Source: Escherichia phage rolling. Taken from it: a DNA stretch of 46,017 nucleotides. Both the position numbers and the translations under genes were made by a program. Every line of letters begins with the position of its first letter. The first letter of the stretch is position 1. Positions 8,820 to 35,376 of the stretch are shown here, piece by piece. Below the pieces are notes generated by a model that saw only the letters and a program-made list of their open reading frames with translations, searched no databases and was not told where the DNA came from. The DNA is taken from the sequence record NC_073056.1. One strand, 5' to 3'.

Positions 8820-9599
8820 TTAACGGCGGCGACGTTTACGTGGTGCTTCGTCTTCGTCGTCTTCGTCCTCATCTTCGTCATCGCGGGACTTACGACGTTT
8901 ACGCGGCTTATCGTCTTCATCGTCGTCATCTTCATCACGGCGGCGCTTAGACTTGCGCGGTTTTTCATCTTCATCATCGTCGTCACGACGTTTTGACTTT
9001 TTGGATTTACGCGGTGCTTCGTCTTCGTCATCATCCAGGTCGTCGTCAGAGCAATATGCACCGCCGCCGCCACCGAAGGAATCCCCATCATCACGGAAGC
9101 GCATACCCAGCAGACCACAGCCTAAGCCTTTGCCGTTGGTATTGTTCCAGGCCCAAATATCTAAGGAAACGTTGCAATAGCAACCGGAATAGATTTCTTT
9201 CCCTTCGATTTCGTCGCCGTCGATGGTCAGACCCTGCTCCGTCTGCTTCTCGCCTTCGGAAGTCTGGATGATCGGCTGTTTGAATGATTTAGCGTTGATA
9301 TACAGCTTACCTTCAAACTCTTCCGTTACTTCTTCACGCTCATCACCATCTCGAACGGCACATTCTTTCGAATCCTGCGCGTAGTGGCGGTCCATCCACT
9401 TATCGGCGTTCTTCTCAGACTTCAGTTTTTCGGTGAGCACTGCGCGTGCCGCCGCTTCCACTTTGTCCACCTGCGGATCTTCTTTATCAAGAATAATCAC
9501 CGCACGATATGCCGGTTTTTGTCCATCCTGTTTAGGGGTATCACGCTCCCAAATTTTCAGGAAGCATACACGTACATTTTTCAGGTTGACTTTAGCCAT
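8820..9599 (-). CDS. SSB-like protein, DUF2815 family, with unusual alternating acidic/basic C-terminal tail
   Basis: N-terminus MAKVNLKNVRVCF...GQKPAYRAVIIL resembles DUF2815 phage SSB; start at internal ATG (M32) with GAGGA RBS; last ~76 aa are D/E blocks alternating with PRKxKxRR blocks. Confidence 0.7.
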   Translation of the reverse strand: MAKVNLKNVRVCFLKIWERDTPKQDGQKPAYRAVIILDKEDPQVDKVEAAARAVLTEKLKSEKNADKWMDRHYAQDSKECAVRDGDEREEVTEEFEGKLYINAKSFKQPIIQTSEGEKQTEQGLTIDGDEIEGKEIYSGCYCNVSLDIWAWNNTNGKGLGCGLLGMRFRDDGDSFGGGGGAYCSDDDLDDDEDEAPRKSKKSKRRDDDDEDEKPRKSKRRRDEDDDDEDDKPRKRRKSRDDEDEDEDDEDEAPRKRRRR

Positions 9600-11839: not shown

Positions 11840-12358
11840 TTAATCTTCTAATTCGAAATACGTTTCTACGATTTCTTTTAAATCTTTGTGGAAGTCTTCG
11901 ACGTCGTCATCTTCCAGCTTGGCGACGGATTTAATTTCGAACGCTTCCAGCAGATCATCAAATTCGTCGTTTGCGTCGTCGTCATCTCCGCCCGCAATAA
12001 TAGCGGCATACTGTTTGATTTCGTCGCGCATTTCTTTAAGCGGATCGGCATCTTTCTTGCCTTTGCCTTTCGCCGGTGCTTTCTTAGATTTCGCCGGGGC
12101 TTCTTCCTCGTCCGCGTCGTCGTCTTCTTCTACGGCTTCTTTCTTAGCCTTGCCCTTTGCGGGCGCTTTTTTGGTCTTTGCCGGGGCTTCGTCTTCAGCA
12201 TCGTCATCTTCGGCTACTTCTTCTTTCGCCTTGCCCTTTGCCGGGGCTTTCTTCGCTTCCTGTTTACCAACGGCAGCGCCAGCAGTTTCATAATGCTTAG
12301 CGATGGTTTCCAGTGCTACAACGCCGCGAGTGATCAGGTTTACGATTTGCTCAAACAT
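11840..12358 (-). CDS. Charged low-complexity protein with three KKAPAKGKxKK / acidic repeats; first leftward early gene
   Basis: ORF track; ATG with GGAG RBS; repeats EEVAEDDDAEDEAPAKTKKAPAKGKAKK x3. Confidence 0.7.
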   Translation of the reverse strand: MFEQIVNLITRGVVALETIAKHYETAGAAVGKQEAKKAPAKGKAKEEVAEDDDAEDEAPAKTKKAPAKGKAKKEAVEEDDDADEEEAPAKSKKAPAKGKGKKDADPLKEMRDEIKQYAAIIAGGDDDDANDEFDDLLEAFEIKSVAKLEDDDVEDFHKDLKEIVETYFELED

Positions 12359-12968: not shown

Positions 12969-15230
12969 ATGAGAGATTATTTAATTGAGTTCGGCACCGT
13001 CGGCGGTAAATACGGCAAACGTGTTAAAAACCATTCTATGACTGAAGCCGAGTTTATGGAATACGTCGCTGATACCGTTGAATTATCCAGCGTAACCATT
13101 ACCGGCGACGAGACTAAGAAAGAATACGACGAGGTGAAAGGCAAGGCGGAAGGCATTGTCGCCACCACTAAAGGCCGGGGACGTCGTGCTACGGAAGTGG
13201 GTGTCCGTTCCGTACTGTTCTATGACCTGGACCGCACTGACAACCGTACCCTCGGTCGCGTTAAGCGTGCCTTTCGCAAATCCGGCTTATCCCACGTCTA
13301 CTACTCCACTACAGGCGACCGCCACCCGCTGAAGGGCGGCACACGTTGCGCCCGTTTCCTGGTGCTCACTGATAAACCGGTTGATGTTTCCGATTTAGGC
13401 CGTGCGCAGTTCGCACTATTGAAACACCTGGGGCTGGAAGACGTGCCGTTTGATGATTGCACAAAAAACGTTAACAACCTGCAATTCCTCCCCCATTCCG
13501 GATCTACCGTGTCGTGTCATCCTGGCACGCCAGCCCGTGTCCGTCGTCTGCTTCGCCTGGCTGACAAGCTGGGAGTGGAGAAAGAGGAAGTACGCCGCGA
13601 ACTGACCCAGGGCGACGATGGCGTGGCGGACGGGATTCTGGATTGGTGCTTCCAGGCTGGCTTTGAACCACTGTCATCCGGTCGCGGTTATGAAGTGCCG
13701 TGCCCGAACGAGCACCTGCATAGCGGCGGCGGGTCGACGGCTATCATGGTTAAGGATGGCGAGATCCGTTTCAAGTGTATGCACACCGGAAACGAGTGCT
13801 GTTCCGAACTGAACAGACACCAGCACCTGGCGCTACGTCTTATAGGGATCCCGGACCACCTGAACGTCGAACCGCACAACATGTCACGTAAGCAAATCGC
13901 CGCCATTCTCCCTGGACTGGACGACGAGGAAGTCGAATCGTGCTATGAACATATTGTTGATGCAGTTGGCGACGGCGAAGAATACGGCGTGTGCACCGAT
14001 GCGGATCTGGATAACGAGCCGGTCGCACTCTTCAGTAAGCACGACCCGATCATAGAAGGCCTGGTAAACTTCAAATCGACCTGGTACATGGCTGGCGAGT
14101 CGAACATCGGTAAATCGTTCTACGTGCTGGGGCAAATGGGCGCGGTTGCCGCGGGGATTCCGTTCGGTGGCGCGAAGGTAGTCCAGTCTCATTGCTTCTA
14201 TTTCGACGCGGAAGGTGGTGAAGCCTCCAACCAGCGTAAAGAAGCATTGCAGATTAAATACGAGCACGACCTGGACAAGCTGCACATTATCGATCTGCAA
14301 TCACGCGGCTGGGATATCACCAGCAAATCCGGCTTGCGTGAAGTTATCAGCTTCATCAACCGCACCGCTAACGGCGAGCCGGTTGGCCTGGTGGCGTTCG
14401 ACTCACTCAACCAGACTGTTGCGCTGCGGTCCGCCGATGCAAAACCGTTCGACGAGAATAACGCCAGCGATATGGGTGAAGTGGTCAAAGCGCTGAAGGC
14501 CATTGCGGAAAATACAGGCGGCAGTGCGGGCGTCATCCACCACCCAGCGAAGGGTGCAAACGGCAGCAGATCTCCCCGTGGGTCCGGCGCGCTTCATGGT
14601 GCTGTTGATTCTGCGTTCTTCCTGGAACAGCCGGATGACAACCAGCCAGGCCAACTCAACCTGTATCACGAAAAATCCCGTAACGGGATTAAGCAAGCGC
14701 CGCGTGGCTTCGTCCTGCTCAAATGCAAGGTGAAGGTGGATCTCCGTAAGTCCGAGGCGTTCGAAGCCCACCAGTCCACCAGCACCGGTCCGGACTTCGG
14801 CGATGTGGTTGCCGGTTGGGACGTCAAGCCAATTGCATCCACGCCACGCGACGAGACTCTCTACCTCGTACCGGTCGCCCTGGCACCGTTCGCTATCGAA
14901 CAGGCGAAGGCGGCTGGCAAGGCAGCAGTTAAGGAAGAGAACACCGCCGGTCCGCGCAACGAAAAAGAGAAAGTGCTTTATGCGGCGCTGGAAAAACTGA
15001 TGGAAGATAACCCGGACCATACCGGATTCAGTAAATCGGCAATTGTCCGCCAGGCAGGGCTGGCAAAAGGTGGCACTTCGACGAAGGCAATCGACGATAT
15101 GGTGGAGCGCGGAGTGATAGGTTTTTACACCGATCCGCACACCGGGGCCATCTATGGGTCGTCTAATTTGGTCATAAAAACGAATATACCCATCACGCTT
15201 TCGGCGACCGATGACGACCTGAAAGATTAA
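12969..15230 (+). CDS. Primase-helicase replication initiator (primase-polymerase N-domain, RecA-like ATPase, C-terminal winged-helix-like region)
   Basis: Walker A GESNIGKS, RecA-like AFDSLNQ / VIHHPAKG segments, C-terminal HTH-like tail. Confidence 0.85.
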   Translation: MRDYLIEFGTVGGKYGKRVKNHSMTEAEFMEYVADTVELSSVTITGDETKKEYDEVKGKAEGIVATTKGRGRRATEVGVRSVLFYDLDRTDNRTLGRVKRAFRKSGLSHVYYSTTGDRHPLKGGTRCARFLVLTDKPVDVSDLGRAQFALLKHLGLEDVPFDDCTKNVNNLQFLPHSGSTVSCHPGTPARVRRLLRLADKLGVEKEEVRRELTQGDDGVADGILDWCFQAGFEPLSSGRGYEVPCPNEHLHSGGGSTAIMVKDGEIRFKCMHTGNECCSELNRHQHLALRLIGIPDHLNVEPHNMSRKQIAAILPGLDDEEVESCYEHIVDAVGDGEEYGVCTDADLDNEPVALFSKHDPIIEGLVNFKSTWYMAGESNIGKSFYVLGQMGAVAAGIPFGGAKVVQSHCFYFDAEGGEASNQRKEALQIKYEHDLDKLHIIDLQSRGWDITSKSGLREVISFINRTANGEPVGLVAFDSLNQTVALRSADAKPFDENNASDMGEVVKALKAIAENTGGSAGVIHHPAKGANGSRSPRGSGALHGAVDSAFFLEQPDDNQPGQLNLYHEKSRNGIKQAPRGFVLLKCKVKVDLRKSEAFEAHQSTSTGPDFGDVVAGWDVKPIASTPRDETLYLVPVALAPFAIEQAKAAGKAAVKEENTAGPRNEKEKVLYAALEKLMEDNPDHTGFSKSAIVRQAGLAKGGTSTKAIDDMVERGVIGFYTDPHTGAIYGSSNLVIKTNIPITLSATDDDLKD

Positions 15231-15339
15231 TTTGTGCGCGTATTGGTTGCCGATATGGGAATTCCCATATCGCTAAAAGATTAAATTTTGCGCGCATTGG
15301 TTGCCATTTTGGGTGTTTTTAGCTGGTCGCATTGGTTGC
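15222..15339 (+). repeat. Tandem duplication of primase 3' end with three ATTGGTTGCC motifs and a 22-bp perfect palindrome
   Basis: AAAGATTAA..GCGCG.ATTGGTTGCC at 15222-15251 and 15276-15305 (~27/30 identical); palindrome CGATATGGGAATTCCCATATCG at 15251-15272; third ATTGGTTGC at 15331-15339. Confidence 0.7.
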
Positions 15340-15371
15340 CGTGTAGTGTAAATATAGTGAATAGTTATGCA

Positions 15372-15547
15372 GTTTTATTGCATAAAGTAAGCGGGACAAA
15401 AAGCGGGACAAACATGGGGCGGGACAAAGCGGGACAGCACCCCCTGTCCCGCCCGGATGGCGCGGCTTGCGGAGGAGCGGGACAGGCGGGACAAACCTCA
15501 GTCTTTCAGACTAGACGGGGTCAGTTGGCCCCCCTCGTCTGAGACTG
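15372..15547 (+). repeat. Iteron array 1: GCGGGACA x7 with TGCATAA motifs and conserved ~50-bp imperfect hairpin
   Basis: GCGGGACA at 15391, 15403, 15419, 15429, 15477, 15487 plus inverted TGTCCCGC at 15445; hairpin 15499-15547; AT-rich stretch just upstream. Confidence 0.85.
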
Positions 15548-15701
15548 CATAAAATCCGGGATTGCATAACGCACGGCAGCATGATGTGAATTGCGGTCGT
15601 CGATGAACTAGGCAACCAATGCGTGTTGAATAATGGAGAGTGAAAAATGCAGTTTGCAGTTGCAGCAGATAGCGATCAACTTTTTCATACGCATGATTAA
15701 T

Positions 15702-25229: not shown

Positions 25230-25362
25230 ACCGCCTTGCACATTTGAGAATGCCTCGGCAGACCCAGACGAAGACTTGCTTGTTGATGTTAAAAATATGG
25301 AGTGCGGATCTAAGCTGCGGGCGCAAGTGCTGGAGTTGCAGAAAATAATTCTGGGGCCGTGA
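25132..25362 (+). CDS. o-spanin (Rz1-like lipoprotein), overlapping Rz in +1 frame
   Basis: Signal peptide with lipobox LSAC, Pro-rich mature part; ATG with AGAGG RBS. Confidence 0.75.
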   Translation: MLRVLTVLIVVLMLSACGSSKAPSTPLTESVYRPPCTFENASADPDEDLLVDVKNMECGSKLRAQVLELQKIILGP

Positions 25363-25379
25363 TGGCCCCCCTTTTGTTA
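25340..25379 (+). terminator. Terminator hairpin, left copy of a 40-bp direct repeat
   Basis: AGAAAATAATTCTGGGGCCGTGATGGCCCC + T-run; GGGGCC/GGCCCC stem, Rz1 stop codon in the loop. Confidence 0.7.
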
Positions 25380-25380
25380 A

Positions 25381-25893
25381 CTACAAACGCATCGGCATGA
25401 TAACTAAAAAGGAACCTCCTTTGAACAGCACGCGTGTTGCCTTGTCTACTCCCTGAAATTCCAGTTTTAAGCCCTCAAACTTATGGTCGAACAATTTAGC
25501 AATTTTGCAGGCGTCGGACAGGTATGCCCCTTTAAACCCGATAGCCTCCACTTTATTGCTGACGAAAGACGTAACTCTTCTCCAGTCTGGAAATCGTCCG
25601 TCTACAATCTCGATGGGTATGGTAGCTATTAATACGTCTTTACTATCGAAGAACGCGGCGGAGGTGCCGTCTATGTTGCAGTATTCGAATTTAGTAGGTA
25701 AGCGGCCTTTAATTGATACTATTTTACTTTCACCTTCTGGAACAACCGCGGACCCGCAGAACAAACGGTGACCGTCGGTAGCCACGATGAATCCTTTCTC
25801 GTCGAAAAATACACCATTTAGGAAGTATCGGACGTCATTAGTTGCGGCGCACATCGTAGCGGCTTTAATGTCGGCATAGTTAACTTTAATCAT
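25381..25893 (-). CDS. Truncated beta-sliding-clamp (DnaN) homologue (about 170 aa)
   Basis: DVRYFLNGVFF...VATDGHRLF, IVDGRFPDWRRV and C-terminal LVIMPMRL match DnaN domain II/III hallmarks as recalled from E. coli DnaN; start at internal ATG (M27) with GAGGA RBS. Confidence 0.75.
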   Translation of the reverse strand: MIKVNYADIKAATMCAATNDVRYFLNGVFFDEKGFIVATDGHRLFCGSAVVPEGESKIVSIKGRLPTKFEYCNIDGTSAAFFDSKDVLIATIPIEIVDGRFPDWRRVTSFVSNKVEAIGFKGAYLSDACKIAKLFDHKFEGLKLEFQGVDKATRVLFKGGSFLVIMPMRL

Positions 25894-25915
25894 TTTCATT
25901 TCCTCGTGGTTATGT

Positions 25916-25955
25916 AGAAAATAATTCTGGGGCCGTGATGGCCCCTTTTTTGTTA
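25916..25955 (+). terminator. Terminator hairpin, right copy of the 40-bp direct repeat
   Basis: 30/30 identical to 25340-25369 then T6; duplicates the last codons of Rz1 plus the hairpin. Confidence 0.7.
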
Positions 25956-26717
25956 GCGCGGAATACCGCAAATCTCGTTGAGTGTTTTCACGTCCAGCGC
26001 CACCGCCGTGGACTTCGTCTTGTTCTGATATGGAATGAACTGTTCAACTTCAGGCCACGCCTTGATCAGCTTCTTATCGGTATTGTGCATATCCAGCACG
26101 CCGGTAACAGTTAGCTTGAACGCGTCATACTTTGCGCGCAACTCGCGGCGGGCCTTGTCATTTCGGTCCAGGCGCTTGCAGAAATCATGATCGGCCGGGT
26201 AGTCTACGCGTCCGCGCGGGAGATATATCGGCAGCACTTTTCCGTCCTCATCCACTTCGCACACTGACGCGAGCATAATTTCCGCGTACCCCGGTACAAT
26301 ATCGCTAACGTCAGGCGCGAGCGTATTCATATATTTCTCTTCCCAGTATCCGCGATGCCGGCGGTAGCTGTATCCGTCACCGCTCATATACAGGGATCGG
26401 ATGTTACCGCCTGCGTTGATTTCGAAATTGTCGCAGTAAACGCACCCAATACCCTTCTGACGGTCTTTGTTATAGCTATACGTCGCCTTGTCGGTGTAAA
26501 CGCTGACGCCATACATCTGCGACTGGTTATTGCGGATTTCTTCGATATATGCGCGTAGCTCGGCGAACGTGCGAATGCCTTTTGGCATACAGTCCAGCGT
26601 AATTGCGTACGCCAGGTCGCGAGAGTCCATCATGATTGATTTGGCTTCAGTCGCGATTTCGTGGTCGCGCAGGATGTTAGCCAGAATCTGGTTTTTAATG
26701 TCTTTTGTCAGTCGCAT
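25953..26717 (-). CDS. Hypothetical protein (254 aa), moron gene antisense to the late operon
   Basis: Track ORF 25953..26762 from internal ATG (M16) with GAGGA RBS; no family recognised. Confidence 0.65.
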   Translation of the reverse strand: MRLTKDIKNQILANILRDHEIATEAKSIMMDSRDLAYAITLDCMPKGIRTFAELRAYIEEIRNNQSQMYGVSVYTDKATYSYNKDRQKGIGCVYCDNFEINAGGNIRSLYMSGDGYSYRRHRGYWEEKYMNTLAPDVSDIVPGYAEIMLASVCEVDEDGKVLPIYLPRGRVDYPADHDFCKRLDRNDKARRELRAKYDAFKLTVTGVLDMHNTDKKLIKAWPEVEQFIPYQNKTKSTAVALDVKTLNEICGIPR

Positions 26718-31586: not shown

Positions 31587-31616
31587 TTTGGTCGCTTAAA
31601 TAGCGAGTGTTAATAT

Positions 31617-31639
31617 GGGGCCTGCACGGCCCCTTTTTT
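31617..31639 (+). terminator. Intrinsic terminator after major tail gene
   Basis: GGGGCC-TGCAC-GGCCCC followed by T6. Confidence 0.7.
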
Positions 31640-31655
31640 ATTGGAGAATATTACA

Positions 31656-32336: not shown

Positions 32337-32661
32337 GCGGGACGGATCGGGACGTCCCGATTTGTCCCGTTTTGTCCCGCCCCCAGTAAAACTGCATACC
32401 TACCCACTTTCATTGCATAAACTCAAAGCGGGACAAGCGGGACGCCCCGATCCGTCCCGCCCATTAAATGTGCATACCTATTCAGATCTCGTGCATAAAA
32501 CAAACGGGACAAAAAGCGGGACAAACATGGGGCGGGACAAAGCGGGACAGCACCCCGTCCCCGTCAGTGCTGCCGCGGGTTTTAGCCGATCGGGACAGGC
32601 GGGACAAAGCCCAGTCTTTCAGACTAGACGGGGGTCAGTTGGCCCCCCTCGTCTGAGACTG
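32337..32661 (+). repeat. Iteron array 2: GCGGGACA-type repeats (>=14 copies) with TGCATAA motifs and the same conserved hairpin
   Basis: Copies at 32337, 32347, 32428, 32437, 32516, 32532, 32542, 32599 and inverted copies; palindrome CGGGACGTCCCG 32348-32359; ~52-bp and ~65-bp blocks near-identical to array 1; hairpin 32612-32661. Confidence 0.85.
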
Positions 32662-32730
32662 AATAAGGTTTGTTTGAAATTCGCTGATACAATGTCAATC
32701 GGCAACTGCATAAAAAAAGGGGACTGCATA

Positions 32731-35376
32731 ATGGCAGATCAAGCAGCAGGCATCACGCTAAAGGCGGATGTTGCACAAATCAGAACGGCGAATACGGTGC
32801 TGGACTCATTCGCGCAGAAGTCCGAGAACACCGAAAACAAGGTTAAGAAATTAAACGACACGCTCGGCAACTCGAAAAAGGTGACGAGTGACGCCGCGGG
32901 CGGAATGGAGAAACTTGCGAACGAATCGCAGCGCGCCGCAGATGGCATGACGAAGCAGGAGCGACTTGCCAACCGCTTAGGCATGTCAACCAAAAACCTC
33001 GGCTTTGCCTCACGTAACGCCGCATTTCAGTTACAGGATATTGCGGTCACGCTTGAGATGGGTATGCCGGTGCACCGTGTCATGCTTCAGCAGCTACCGC
33101 AGTTAACTGGGGCATTCGGTGGCCTGGGTAACACGCTGCGTTATGTTGCTGGTTTTCTCGGTCCGGTAGGGATCGGTCTTGCTGCGGTAACGGCGACGTT
33201 AGGCGTAGGCGTGGCGATTACGTCCCGCGCCGAAAACCAGGTAGCGGCGCTGAATAAGACGCTGGCGCTATCAGGTAATATCTCTGGCCTCACCGCTAAC
33301 CAGATCCTGGTGCTGTCGGAGAACGCCGAACGCATGGGCGGGTCATTCAGCAAGACGCGTGACACAATTCAGGCACTGGCGGCAGCAGGTGTGAAAGCGG
33401 GTGCTGACTTCGGCGCACTGGCGAAAGTGGTGAACGACTTCGCGAAGGTGTCTAATCAGCCGATCGCGGACGTGGTGGAGTCCATCTCCAAATTGTCCAA
33501 CGACCCGGTGGGCGGCTTGCGCGCACTGGCGGACAAGTATCACGTCGTTACCGAGGCGCAGATCCAGCAGGTGCAATCCCTGGTGACGACGGGCCGCGAA
33601 ACCGAAGCGGTGGCGTTGGCTAACAAAACAGCCGCGGCGTCGTTCACCAGCATGACCAACGAGATCAAGTCCAACATGGGTACGCTTGAGCGGTCAATGA
33701 ACGTAGTCACATCGGCAGCCAAATCTATGTGGGATGCCATCCTGGATGTGGGCCGCGCGCAGTCCTCGAATGAGTCCGAGATGAAAGCGCGTGAATCCTT
33801 GCAGCGCATGACAACGGCCTACTATGCCGAGATGAAAGCGGTAAACGCTGCCGGTGGGGTAATGACCGAGGCGCAGAAAGCACGAATTAACATGCTTTAT
33901 AGCGAACTGGTCGCCCAGGAGAAAGTAGTAGCGTCACTCACCCTGCGCAACCGTGCTGAGCGTGACAACGCAAGCGCCGCGGACAAATCAGCGAAGGCGA
34001 ACGAGGAGGCCAACCGCACCGCCCGCGACCGCGCCGCGTTCGAGAAGGAATTTGCCACCAACGCGCAGAAGCGCGCCGACGAGATCGCCCGCCTCAATTT
34101 GCTGAATAAGCGCGGTGTGATTAACGAGAAAGAACTAGCCGAGGCGGTGAAGCAGGTCAACGAGCGCTACAAAGACCCCGCACCGAAGAAGGCGGCGGCT
34201 ATTCGCGTGGATGCTGGTGTCAAAATGCTGGAGGTCGCACGGAGCGAACTGGCGCAGCTTAAGGAGTCCGGCAAGCAGATCGAGGCCAATGCGACAACGC
34301 AGACCCGCACGCAGCGCGCACAGGCCGCGTTGAATAAGCTGGTGGCGGATAATGAGCAGATGGTCACAGCAAGCAAGGAGCGCACACTAACGGCAGCAGA
34401 AAAGCAGCAGATGGCGGAGTTCGAGGCGGTTAAAGCAGTACGCGAGCAGATCGTCGAAGAAGCCAAGTTGCTGGACGCGAAAGAGAAGCAGATCAAGGCA
34501 CACGCCCAGGTCGAGGCATTCATCAAGAACCAGAACGCTGAGCTAAGGGCCACCGCTGCGGGCTATGCGCTTTCCACTCGCGAAGCGGCTAACCTGCGCG
34601 AAGAATTACAGCTAATTGACCGCCTTCAGCGTGTCGGCGCTAACGATACTGATATTGACAACGCGGTGTCTAAGCTGCGCGAAGTGCAGGAAGCACAGAC
34701 CGGTGCTAACGCCTCGTTGTGGGATGGCTTCAGCCGCGGGCTTAAGGATAGCGTGGATGAAATGGGTAACGGCTACACGCAGATGACGTCACTCACAAAA
34801 TTCACGTTCGGCGCTATGCAGGACACGATGAACAAGTTTTTCGAGACGGGCAAGCTGAGCGCGAAGGATATGGTTAAGTCCATCCTGAGCGAATTAATCA
34901 AGCTGGCTACCTCGCAGGCGTTCAAATCCGTCGTTAGCGCTTTCGGCGGTGACGGCGGCAAAAACGGATTGTTCGGCGCTATCTTCTCCGGCCTCACTAA
35001 GAACGCAGACGGCGGAGCGTACGCAGGAGGCAACCTCGCGGCCTATTCGGGGCAAGTGGTAAGCCAGCCTACCTTTTTCAGCTATGGCGTCCAGGCGTTC
35101 GCGAAGGGCGCAGGATTGATGGGTGAGGCTGGACCCGAGGCAATCATGCCACTGAAGCGCGGGCCGGATGGGAAACTGGGCGTTGCCGCTGCCGGTGTTG
35201 GTGGGGGTGGGATGATTGTAACGACCAACGTGAACATGGGGACCGGTAAAACGGACACCAGTGTGAGCGGACCGGACCCACGCACCGCGCAGGCGTTCGG
35301 CAAGCAAATCACCGAGTCGGTCAAGGCCGAGATCGTGAAAGCGACGAAACCGGGTGGAGTACTTTACAAACGATGA
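32731..35376 (+). CDS. Tape measure protein
   Basis: 881 aa from internal ATG (M134 of track ORF 32332..35376; upstream part runs through the repeat array); coiled-coil Ala/Gln-rich centre, Gly-rich C-terminus. Confidence 0.85.
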   Translation: MADQAAGITLKADVAQIRTANTVLDSFAQKSENTENKVKKLNDTLGNSKKVTSDAAGGMEKLANESQRAADGMTKQERLANRLGMSTKNLGFASRNAAFQLQDIAVTLEMGMPVHRVMLQQLPQLTGAFGGLGNTLRYVAGFLGPVGIGLAAVTATLGVGVAITSRAENQVAALNKTLALSGNISGLTANQILVLSENAERMGGSFSKTRDTIQALAAAGVKAGADFGALAKVVNDFAKVSNQPIADVVESISKLSNDPVGGLRALADKYHVVTEAQIQQVQSLVTTGRETEAVALANKTAAASFTSMTNEIKSNMGTLERSMNVVTSAAKSMWDAILDVGRAQSSNESEMKARESLQRMTTAYYAEMKAVNAAGGVMTEAQKARINMLYSELVAQEKVVASLTLRNRAERDNASAADKSAKANEEANRTARDRAAFEKEFATNAQKRADEIARLNLLNKRGVINEKELAEAVKQVNERYKDPAPKKAAAIRVDAGVKMLEVARSELAQLKESGKQIEANATTQTRTQRAQAALNKLVADNEQMVTASKERTLTAAEKQQMAEFEAVKAVREQIVEEAKLLDAKEKQIKAHAQVEAFIKNQNAELRATAAGYALSTREAANLREELQLIDRLQRVGANDTDIDNAVSKLREVQEAQTGANASLWDGFSRGLKDSVDEMGNGYTQMTSLTKFTFGAMQDTMNKFFETGKLSAKDMVKSILSELIKLATSQAFKSVVSAFGGDGGKNGLFGAIFSGLTKNADGGAYAGGNLAAYSGQVVSQPTFFSYGVQAFAKGAGLMGEAGPEAIMPLKRGPDGKLGVAAAGVGGGGMIVTTNVNMGTGKTDTSVSGPDPRTAQAFGKQITESVKAEIVKATKPGGVLYKR

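Follow-up and report, generated by a model that had tools for sequence, protein, structure and literature searches.

What is the function of an imperfect hairpin of about 50 nucleotides that stands twice in the genome of a virulent coliphage, each time at the end of an array of short iterons? The question is raised by Escherichia phage rolling (NC_073056.1), a Dhillonvirus (HK578/SO-1-like), whose 46,017-nucleotide stretch of DNA is the window analyzed here. Dhillonviruses are common coliphages; the BASEL collection includes them, and both therapy cocktails and defense-system screens make use of them. To our knowledge, no Dhillonvirus origin of replication has been mapped experimentally. The locus is widespread, as 157 phage records match at 79–96% identity and almost all of them carry both places. 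The GenBank record of SO-1 (2009) marks the two gaps as repeat "region A" and "region B," mutually similar, with a note that begins "possible ...", and a literature search found no published analysis of these SO-1 regions.

Position and Fold of the Hairpin

Copy A of the hairpin is the 49-mer CAGTCTTTCAGACTAGACGGGGTCAGTTGGCCCCCCTCGTCTGAGACTG at 15499–15547, and copy B, located at 32612–32661, is the same sequence with one extra G in the G-run; both are read on the + strand. No chance match to the 49-mer is expected, and none arose in 100 shuffles. Folding prediction returns a stable hairpin for both copies with either parameter set: copies A and B reach −25.1 and −28.2 kcal/mol with RNA parameters (z of −3.7 and −4.6, with none of 200 shuffles as stable) and −10.7 and −12.0 kcal/mol with DNA parameters (z of −2.8 and −3.2). 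As RNA, the + strand folds slightly better than its complement, in part owing to U-G pairs.

The hairpin is built of an outer helix (helix I, CAGTCT/AGACTG), an internal loop of TTC opposite G, a middle helix of AGAC/GTCT, and an apical stem formed by the G-run and the C-run and closed by a variable loop. The two copies, their coordinates, and the pairing of outer CAGTCT with AGACTG and of inner AGAC(G) with (C)GTCT thus stand roughly as the sequence-only reading described them, with the G-run/C-run stem added. AGAC/GTCT is present five times within the element. Since AGAC occurs twice in tandem on the left arm, two registers are possible, and the alternative one extends the middle helix to AGACG/CGTCT. 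A further alternative fold is a 5-bp mini-hairpin, AGTCT-TTC-AGACT. The comparison of lineages does not favor the middle helix of the minimum free energy structure, UCAGAC/GUCUGA, as the linker base is G, A, or TC according to lineage, at the cost of one or two pairs of this helix. With CAGTCT/AGACTG as the outer helix, these lineage changes fall inside the internal loop.

The hairpin directly abuts the last iteron, and no T-tract follows it at either copy on either strand, which agrees with the earlier view that it is not a standard terminator. Only short A/T-rich stretches come after it, CATAAAATCC at copy A and AATAAGGTTTGTTTGAAATT at copy B. Promoter and terminator scans did not call the hairpin and revealed no strong sigma-70 promoter at site A, and no tRNA or tmRNA genes were found. 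Rfam 15 gave no match at gathering thresholds; at relaxed thresholds (E ≤ 1), the two regions yielded only chance sub-threshold miRNA and sRNA matches, none of them on the hairpin.

The Duplicated Module

The hairpin is not a free-standing repeat, but the 3′ end of a direct duplication of about 195 nt, as defined by alignment and by repeat families (D2 and D10 for module A). Modules A (15357–15552, + strand) and B (32470–32666, + strand) are direct repeats 17.1 kb apart, with one hairpin at the 3′ end of each, so that the hairpin is indeed common to both iteron regions. The modules share 82% identity over 164 nt, their iteron blocks are identical, and the similarity stops about 5 nt past the hairpin. 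Each module runs in the same order: a palindrome containing TGCATAA, four iterons GCGGGACA, a variable middle of about 40 nt holding one inverted iteron, two further iterons GCGGGACA, and the hairpin.

In array A (15391–15493, + strand), the direct iterons GCGGGACA begin at 15391, 15403, 15419, 15429, 15477, and 15486, and the inverted iteron, TGTCCCGC, occupies 15445–15452. Array B (32504–32606, + strand) holds six direct copies of (G/A/T)CGGGACA at 32504, 32516, 32532, 32542, 32590, and 32599. The core CGGGACA is found in forward orientation six times at site A, seven times at site B, and three times scattered through the rest of the 46 kb. Site B alone carries additional degenerate iteron palindromes on the + strand at 32337–32380 and 32428–32460 (span 32337–32460; inverted repeat I1 and motif positions), each of which is followed by a TGCATAC-N14/15-TGCATAA unit. 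A CsrA sponge was considered on account of the GGA within the iterons and rejected, as the iterons change completely between lineages.

Several smaller motifs accompany the modules. The 5′ edge of module A is formed by the palindrome TTATGCA-N7-TGCATAA (15365–15385, with GTTTTAT at its center). In about half of the related phages this 7-nt center appears as its reverse complement, ATAAAAC, so the whole 21-mer exists in both orientations, a flip of the kind seen at hairpin loops. TGCATAA clusters at both iteron regions (15379, 15546, 15563, 32414, 32492, 32707, and 32725, and inverted at 15365); among these copies are one that overlaps hairpin A at its 3′ end and one that overlaps the tape-measure start codon. 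As a DnaA box, TGCATAA was rejected on inspection of the sequence, with only 7–8 of 9 positions matching and a conserved core that is not the DnaA core. Downstream of the hairpins, CGGCAGC lies at 15574–15580 (+ strand), 27 nt 3′ of hairpin A, and the equivalent CGGCAAC at 32700–32706 (+ strand), 39 nt 3′ of hairpin B. CGGCA(A/G)C stands 27–47 nt 3′ of the hairpin at 9 of 10 sites across lineages (including L125, L127, L037, L128, L129, L035, and copy B), a recurrence of moderate significance given the 62 forward matches in the genome.

Genomic Setting and History of the Two Copies

Copy A is situated in a 533-nt gap that follows the open reading frame of a 753-aa "replicative helicase/primase" (12969–15230), and begins 161 nt past the stop codon of this gene. 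Copy B is situated in a 400-nt non-coding stretch that separates the frameshift product of the tail-assembly chaperone from the tape-measure gene (ATG at 32732); this stretch cannot encode protein, because the length of the G-run varies between phages. Both hairpin copies are oriented with the surrounding genes and must be transcribed through in the sense direction. In all copy-B flanks, an extended −10-like sequence, TGATACAAT (32685–32693), is conserved between the hairpin and the tape-measure start, and may act as a promoter that serves the tail genes from within their operon. The turning point of cumulative GC skew is the divergent promoter region (12325) rather than site A or site B; the skew was set aside as an origin marker, as it simply tracks gene orientation.

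A scan with the left arm of the hairpin found both copies in every Dhillonvirus contig and one copy in the L125/L137-type contig. The single copy of the L125/L137 type implies that the duplication behind copy B is confined to Dhillonvirus proper, where it extends to the most divergent members, LM40P1 and Ioannina. Cornellvirus likewise has one iteron cluster. On its right side, copy B is flanked by GAAATTCGC, which is similar to the sequence that flanks the single copy of L125 and L127 on the same side. In the metagenome contig OERD01001008.1 (L106:150–330), a Dhillonvirus A-site with helicase-side flanks holds a B-type variable middle, which is evidence of recombination or gene conversion between the two modules, and variants of the last iterons and of the loop are common to A-sites and B-sites of different phages. 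Because the copies still exchange sequence, their identity within one genome is weak evidence of constraint. This bears on the earlier argument that near-identity between copies with differing flanks suggests selection. The near-identity and the differing 3′ flanks hold, but the 5′ flanks are alike, as they belong to the duplication of about 195 nt, and the argument is weak in that form. Selection is instead shown by the comparison between phages.

Conservation Across Phages

The hairpin is a real, non-random feature under strong selection. Among 49 Dhillonvirus copies, which comprise 20 different hairpin sequences, neither the left arm (AGTCTTTCAGACTAGAC) nor the right arm (CGTCTGAGACTG) changes, and variation is confined to the apical loop, the lengths of the G- and C-runs, and the first base. 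The distance between the arms is nearly constant at 19–20 nt, and the G-run and C-run of the apical stem remain complementary in all variants. When 40 distinct modules are aligned, all 29 columns of the arms are invariant, compared with 31 of 46 in the first iteron block, 10 of 39 in the middle, and 8 of 46 downstream; the arms are thus the most conserved block of the module, which sustains the claim that the element is selected.

Covariation was counted over 22 distinct sequences in the two alternative registers. Some 95% of cells are paired, a share that falls to 59% or less when the partners are slid. The pairs almost never vary, with a single two-sided change and a G-U at pair 20-38 in two sequences. 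Comparison with relatives, put forward earlier as a check on the structure, therefore confirms conservation of the arms and is uninformative on their pairing, as the arms never vary. The two-sided change belongs to L127, in which the iterons have switched to GTGTGGCA and the same hairpin is kept, with its apical stem altered to GGGTG/CACCC and its linker base changed from G to A; in L125 the linker reads TC. Since L127 retains the hairpin despite its different iterons, the hairpin is a module separate from the iterons.

The layout of gene, iterons, and long hairpin recurs in every lineage fetched (L125/L137, L127, SE1, L128, and L129). In Cornellvirus, a CTCCT-TAG-AGGAG mini-hairpin comes right after the last iteron and is followed by a hairpin of the form AGATGGGTGGG...CCCCCACCATC, which is nearly invariant within the genus. 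The 42-nt core of this hairpin in SE1 (L037:3925–3966) folds with z = −3.0, and with z of −2.1 and −1.4 when flanks are included. L128 and L129 have unrelated hairpins of 40–60 nt in the same position (z of −3.7 and −4.0), and L130 has a weak hairpin only. The unrelated long hairpins of SE1, L128, and L129 indicate that a long hairpin distal to the iterons is a family-wide trait with a lineage-specific sequence. A scan with the left arm retrieved only Dhillonvirus-type loci from the genome and viral collections, plus three chance matches in coding DNA (L132, L133, and L138).

The Adjacent Replication Protein

The 753-aa protein encoded upstream of copy A (12969–15230, + strand) consists of three predicted parts. 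Its N-terminal part has a predicted archaeo-eukaryotic-type (AEP)/PrimPol primase fold followed by invariant Cys/His residues, its middle is an AAA_25 helicase of the family of RSF1010 RepA (RecA/RepA type), and its C-terminus is a predicted winged helix resembling the domains with which ORC and Cdc6 bind origins. An AEP primase that would be cognate to the hairpin is thus encoded by the phage itself. As modeled, the protein would unite three functions of RSF1010, namely a RepB′-like primase, a RepA-like helicase, and an iteron binder.

Iteron sequence follows protein lineage. GCGGGACA is found in Dhillonvirus and in L125/L137 (67% protein identity), GTGTGGCA in L127 and L126 (69%), GGGGGAGA in Cornellvirus SE1 and its group (44%), and TTGCGAGT/TCGCAA-type iterons in L128 and L129 (48–49%). 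From these sequence comparisons, we infer that the winged helix reads the iterons. A scan of viral contigs with the GGGGGAGA pattern returned mostly noise. Arrays of GCGGGACA are also present 3′ of unrelated AAA_25 helicase genes in environmental contigs (L004, L008, L015, L028/L032, and L098/L107), where they comprise direct and inverted copies and end in a palindrome containing GGGACA. The helicases of these contigs have Toprim or PriCT N-termini and a common C-terminal motif (K/R-R-x-F-x-R...G-h-h). Judged by sequence, one iteron specificity seems to have spread over very different replicons.

Other Repeats in the Window

The 9-mer ATTGGTTGC or its complement occurs 16 times, at 1340, 2889, 2906, 5848, 12427, 15242, 15296, 15331, 15612, 15702, 15733, 16288, 18732, 26741, 26755, and 42870. 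Its copies are apparently mostly intergenic and often paired or palindromic, as in TATAGTGCAACCAACCTATTGGTTGCAAG at 1323–1351, and sister lineages have the variants TTGGCTGC, TTGGCCGC, and TTGGCAGC at equivalent places. ATTGGTTGC probably serves as operator for a phage regulator or as an element associated with promoters. The first two ATTGGTTGCC motifs that follow the helicase gene enclose a perfect 22-bp palindrome, CGATATGGGAATTCCCATATCG (15251–15272). Coding repeats rich in GA(C/T)GA are found at 8835–9035 and 11885–12253 (− strand; families D1, D3, and D5), and specify acidic repeats in two open reading frames.

A Proposed Origin Stem-Loop and Its Alternatives

The hairpin is tentatively interpreted, at a probability of about 0.45, as the stem-loop of a replication origin, which would serve as the start signal of the AEP primase once the helicase has exposed it following binding of the iterons by the winged helix. 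The hairpin is always the last element of the iteron array, and in the ancestral single-copy arrangement the array lies immediately 3′ of the gene for the AEP primase, RepA-like helicase, and winged helix. In the proposed mechanism, the winged-helix domains would bind the GCGGGACA iterons, and the helicase domain would open the neighboring DNA. On the single strand thus exposed, the GC-rich imperfect palindrome would fold into the hairpin, and the AEP primase domain would recognize it by its invariant arms and its internal loop and begin DNA synthesis there. Among the functions offered by the sequence-only reading, a primase loading site fits best, given that the product of the adjacent gene joins an AEP primase to a RepA-like helicase and a winged helix. 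Against the origin interpretation, there is no pair of hairpins on opposite strands as in RSF1010, and no clear AT-rich unwinding element is seen by the iterons. A replication origin within a tail operon is also unexpected.

The signal could instead be read in RNA. The hairpin would then act in the sense transcript as an RNase III-type processing site, a 3′-end stabilizer, or a cis modulator of elongation, and would set how strongly the genes 3′ of the helicase gene, as well as the tape-measure and tail genes, are expressed. This is suggested by the sense orientation of both copies with their genes, by the strong RNA fold (−25 and −28 kcal/mol; z of −3.7 and −4.6) and its slight preference for the + strand, by the two sequences with G-U at pair 20-38, and by the location of copy B, since differential processing of the mRNA would be plausible between the genes for the tail chaperone and the tape measure. 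We nevertheless consider an RNA element unlikely, since Rfam offers no match even at relaxed thresholds, the arms are invariant rather than covarying, and the hairpin always accompanies the iterons and the primase-helicase gene, also in single-copy lineages; a role confined to the tail operon cannot account for the ancestral copy A. The invariant arms fit a protein-binding site in duplex DNA as well as they fit a hairpin, which leads to a different proposal, in which a dimeric phage or host protein would read AGTCT/AGACT half-sites with no extrusion of the hairpin, and so regulate origin firing or transcription. Invariant arms around a varying center are typical of operators, AGAC/GTCT recurs five times, and the arms keep an almost constant spacing of 19–20 nt. 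A mere spacer would not need G-run/C-run complementarity, which is always kept and is restored by the two-sided change in L127, and distant relatives keep a hairpin but not its sequence; such a duplex site is accordingly judged less probable than an RNA element.

Two further explanations are given little credence. A factor-independent terminator or attenuator that closes the replication operon would account for a GC-rich hairpin 3′ of a long gene, and the GenBank record of CS16 predicts a terminator inside the module, but at the inverted iterons and not at the hairpin. There is no U-tract on either strand, the canonical terminators of this phage differ in form (GGGGCC-loop-GGCCCC followed by a T-run, at 25337, 25913, and 31601), and termination before the tape-measure gene would block tail expression, all of which makes this explanation very improbable. 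The three canonical terminators (25337–25379, 25913–25955, and 31601–31643) have a 43-nt repeat in common, and the first two, which are 93% identical, flank a reverse-strand open reading frame (25381–25971). The least probable explanation is that the hairpin marks a packaging (cos/pac) site or a rolling-circle nick site, though hairpins flank the nick sites of HUH-type origins and the GenBank records of several relatives begin about 100 nt after copy A. For phage EE09, a 10-nt 5′ cohesive end, ATCTTAAGGG, was predicted by PhageTerm (PMC10673088), and this sequence maps to 2876–2885, far from both hairpins; another Dhillonvirus has been called headful. The exact match to ATCTTAAGGG is on the − strand, in a gap between two ATTGGTTGC-complement motifs. 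The nick site that had been suggested earlier finds no partner enzyme, as no HUH nuclease or relaxase is annotated in the two related genomes SO-1 and Ioannina.

Comparison With Known Systems

The origin stem-loop reading places the hairpin beside several characterized replicons. In RSF1010, binding of RepC lets RepA expose ssiA and ssiB, and RepB′ reads the ssi hairpins together with flanking bases and starts the primer a few bases from the stem (PMC8567376). The RSF1010 oriV is thus similar in its combination of iterons and hairpin and in its set of primase, helicase, and iteron binder. The two systems differ in that RepC, RepA, and RepB′ are separate proteins in RSF1010 (IncQ), whereas the corresponding activities appear fused in one 753-aa protein in Dhillonvirus, and in that RSF1010 has two ssi hairpins, inverted and on opposite strands, whereas Dhillonvirus has one hairpin per module. 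No sequence similarity between the Dhillonvirus hairpin and ssiA was noted, and the Dhillonvirus replicon, unlike RSF1010, is a virulent phage with its own DNA polymerase.

A second parallel is the Sulfolobus plasmid pRN1, in which a stem-loop 3′ of orf904 is needed for replication, works when moved, and requires pairing, and whose authors pointed to similar arrangements in some phages (PMC4234260). Both replicons have a gene for an AEP primase, helicase, and winged helix with a stem-loop just 3′ of it, and in both the structure is kept while the sequence diverges. However, pRN1 has an SF3 helicase, no iteron array, and a stem-loop of about 100 nt, whereas Dhillonvirus has an AAA_25 helicase and iterons, and the hairpin sequence is frozen within Dhillonvirus.

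Phage P4 and the SaPI/PICI elements share other features of the arrangement. The alpha protein of P4 is a primase-helicase with a C-terminal winged-helix origin-binding domain, and the P4 ori and crr regions carry the same short iterons. P4 alpha differs from the Dhillonvirus protein in having a different primase and an SF3 helicase; moreover, ori and crr are 4.5 kb apart as opposed to 17 kb, and neither P4 site is known to lie in a structural operon. We know of no conserved hairpin described at ori or crr. Copy B could function either as another origin or in cis, as crr does in P4. In SaPI/PICI elements, the helicase gene (rep) has an iteron origin directly 3′ of it, and iteron specificity varies with the C-terminal domain of Rep. 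The SaPI origin differs in its AT-rich center between two iteron sets and is not known to have a conserved GC-rich hairpin. The hairpin is best read as an uncharacterized member of the known class that includes the RSF1010 ssi sites, the pRN1 stem-loop, P4 ori/crr, and the SaPI rep-ori. What is unusual is that a second complete module is fixed in the tail operon of the entire genus.

Implications for Dhillonvirus Biology

An independent and indirect hint toward the origin reading comes from HK578 mutants that escape P2 OLD, which map to the helicase-primase gene and its promoter; the preprint that describes them proposes single-stranded hairpins at iteron origins as what OLD senses (bioRxiv 10.64898/2026.07.10.737580). 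A bolder version of the origin stem-loop reading is regarded as speculative and rather improbable, if less so than an RNA element. It holds that both modules are functional, self-contained origins, one of them in the tail operon, and that the hairpin is the start signal for the fused protein. Dhillonvirus would then offer the first phage case of RSF1010-style hairpin-directed priming, and the extruded hairpin may be what P2 OLD or Lamassu senses.

The second origin-like module, conserved in the tail operon of the relatives, is an unexplained feature of genome architecture. The module at 15357–15552 and the gene at 12969–15230 together constitute a concrete and cheaply testable candidate for the Dhillonvirus origin, and the 753-aa fusion protein should lend itself well to studying how a hairpin directs AEP priming. 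The hairpin itself is a physical candidate for the "origin hairpin" that has been proposed as the target of OLD- and Lamassu-type defense.
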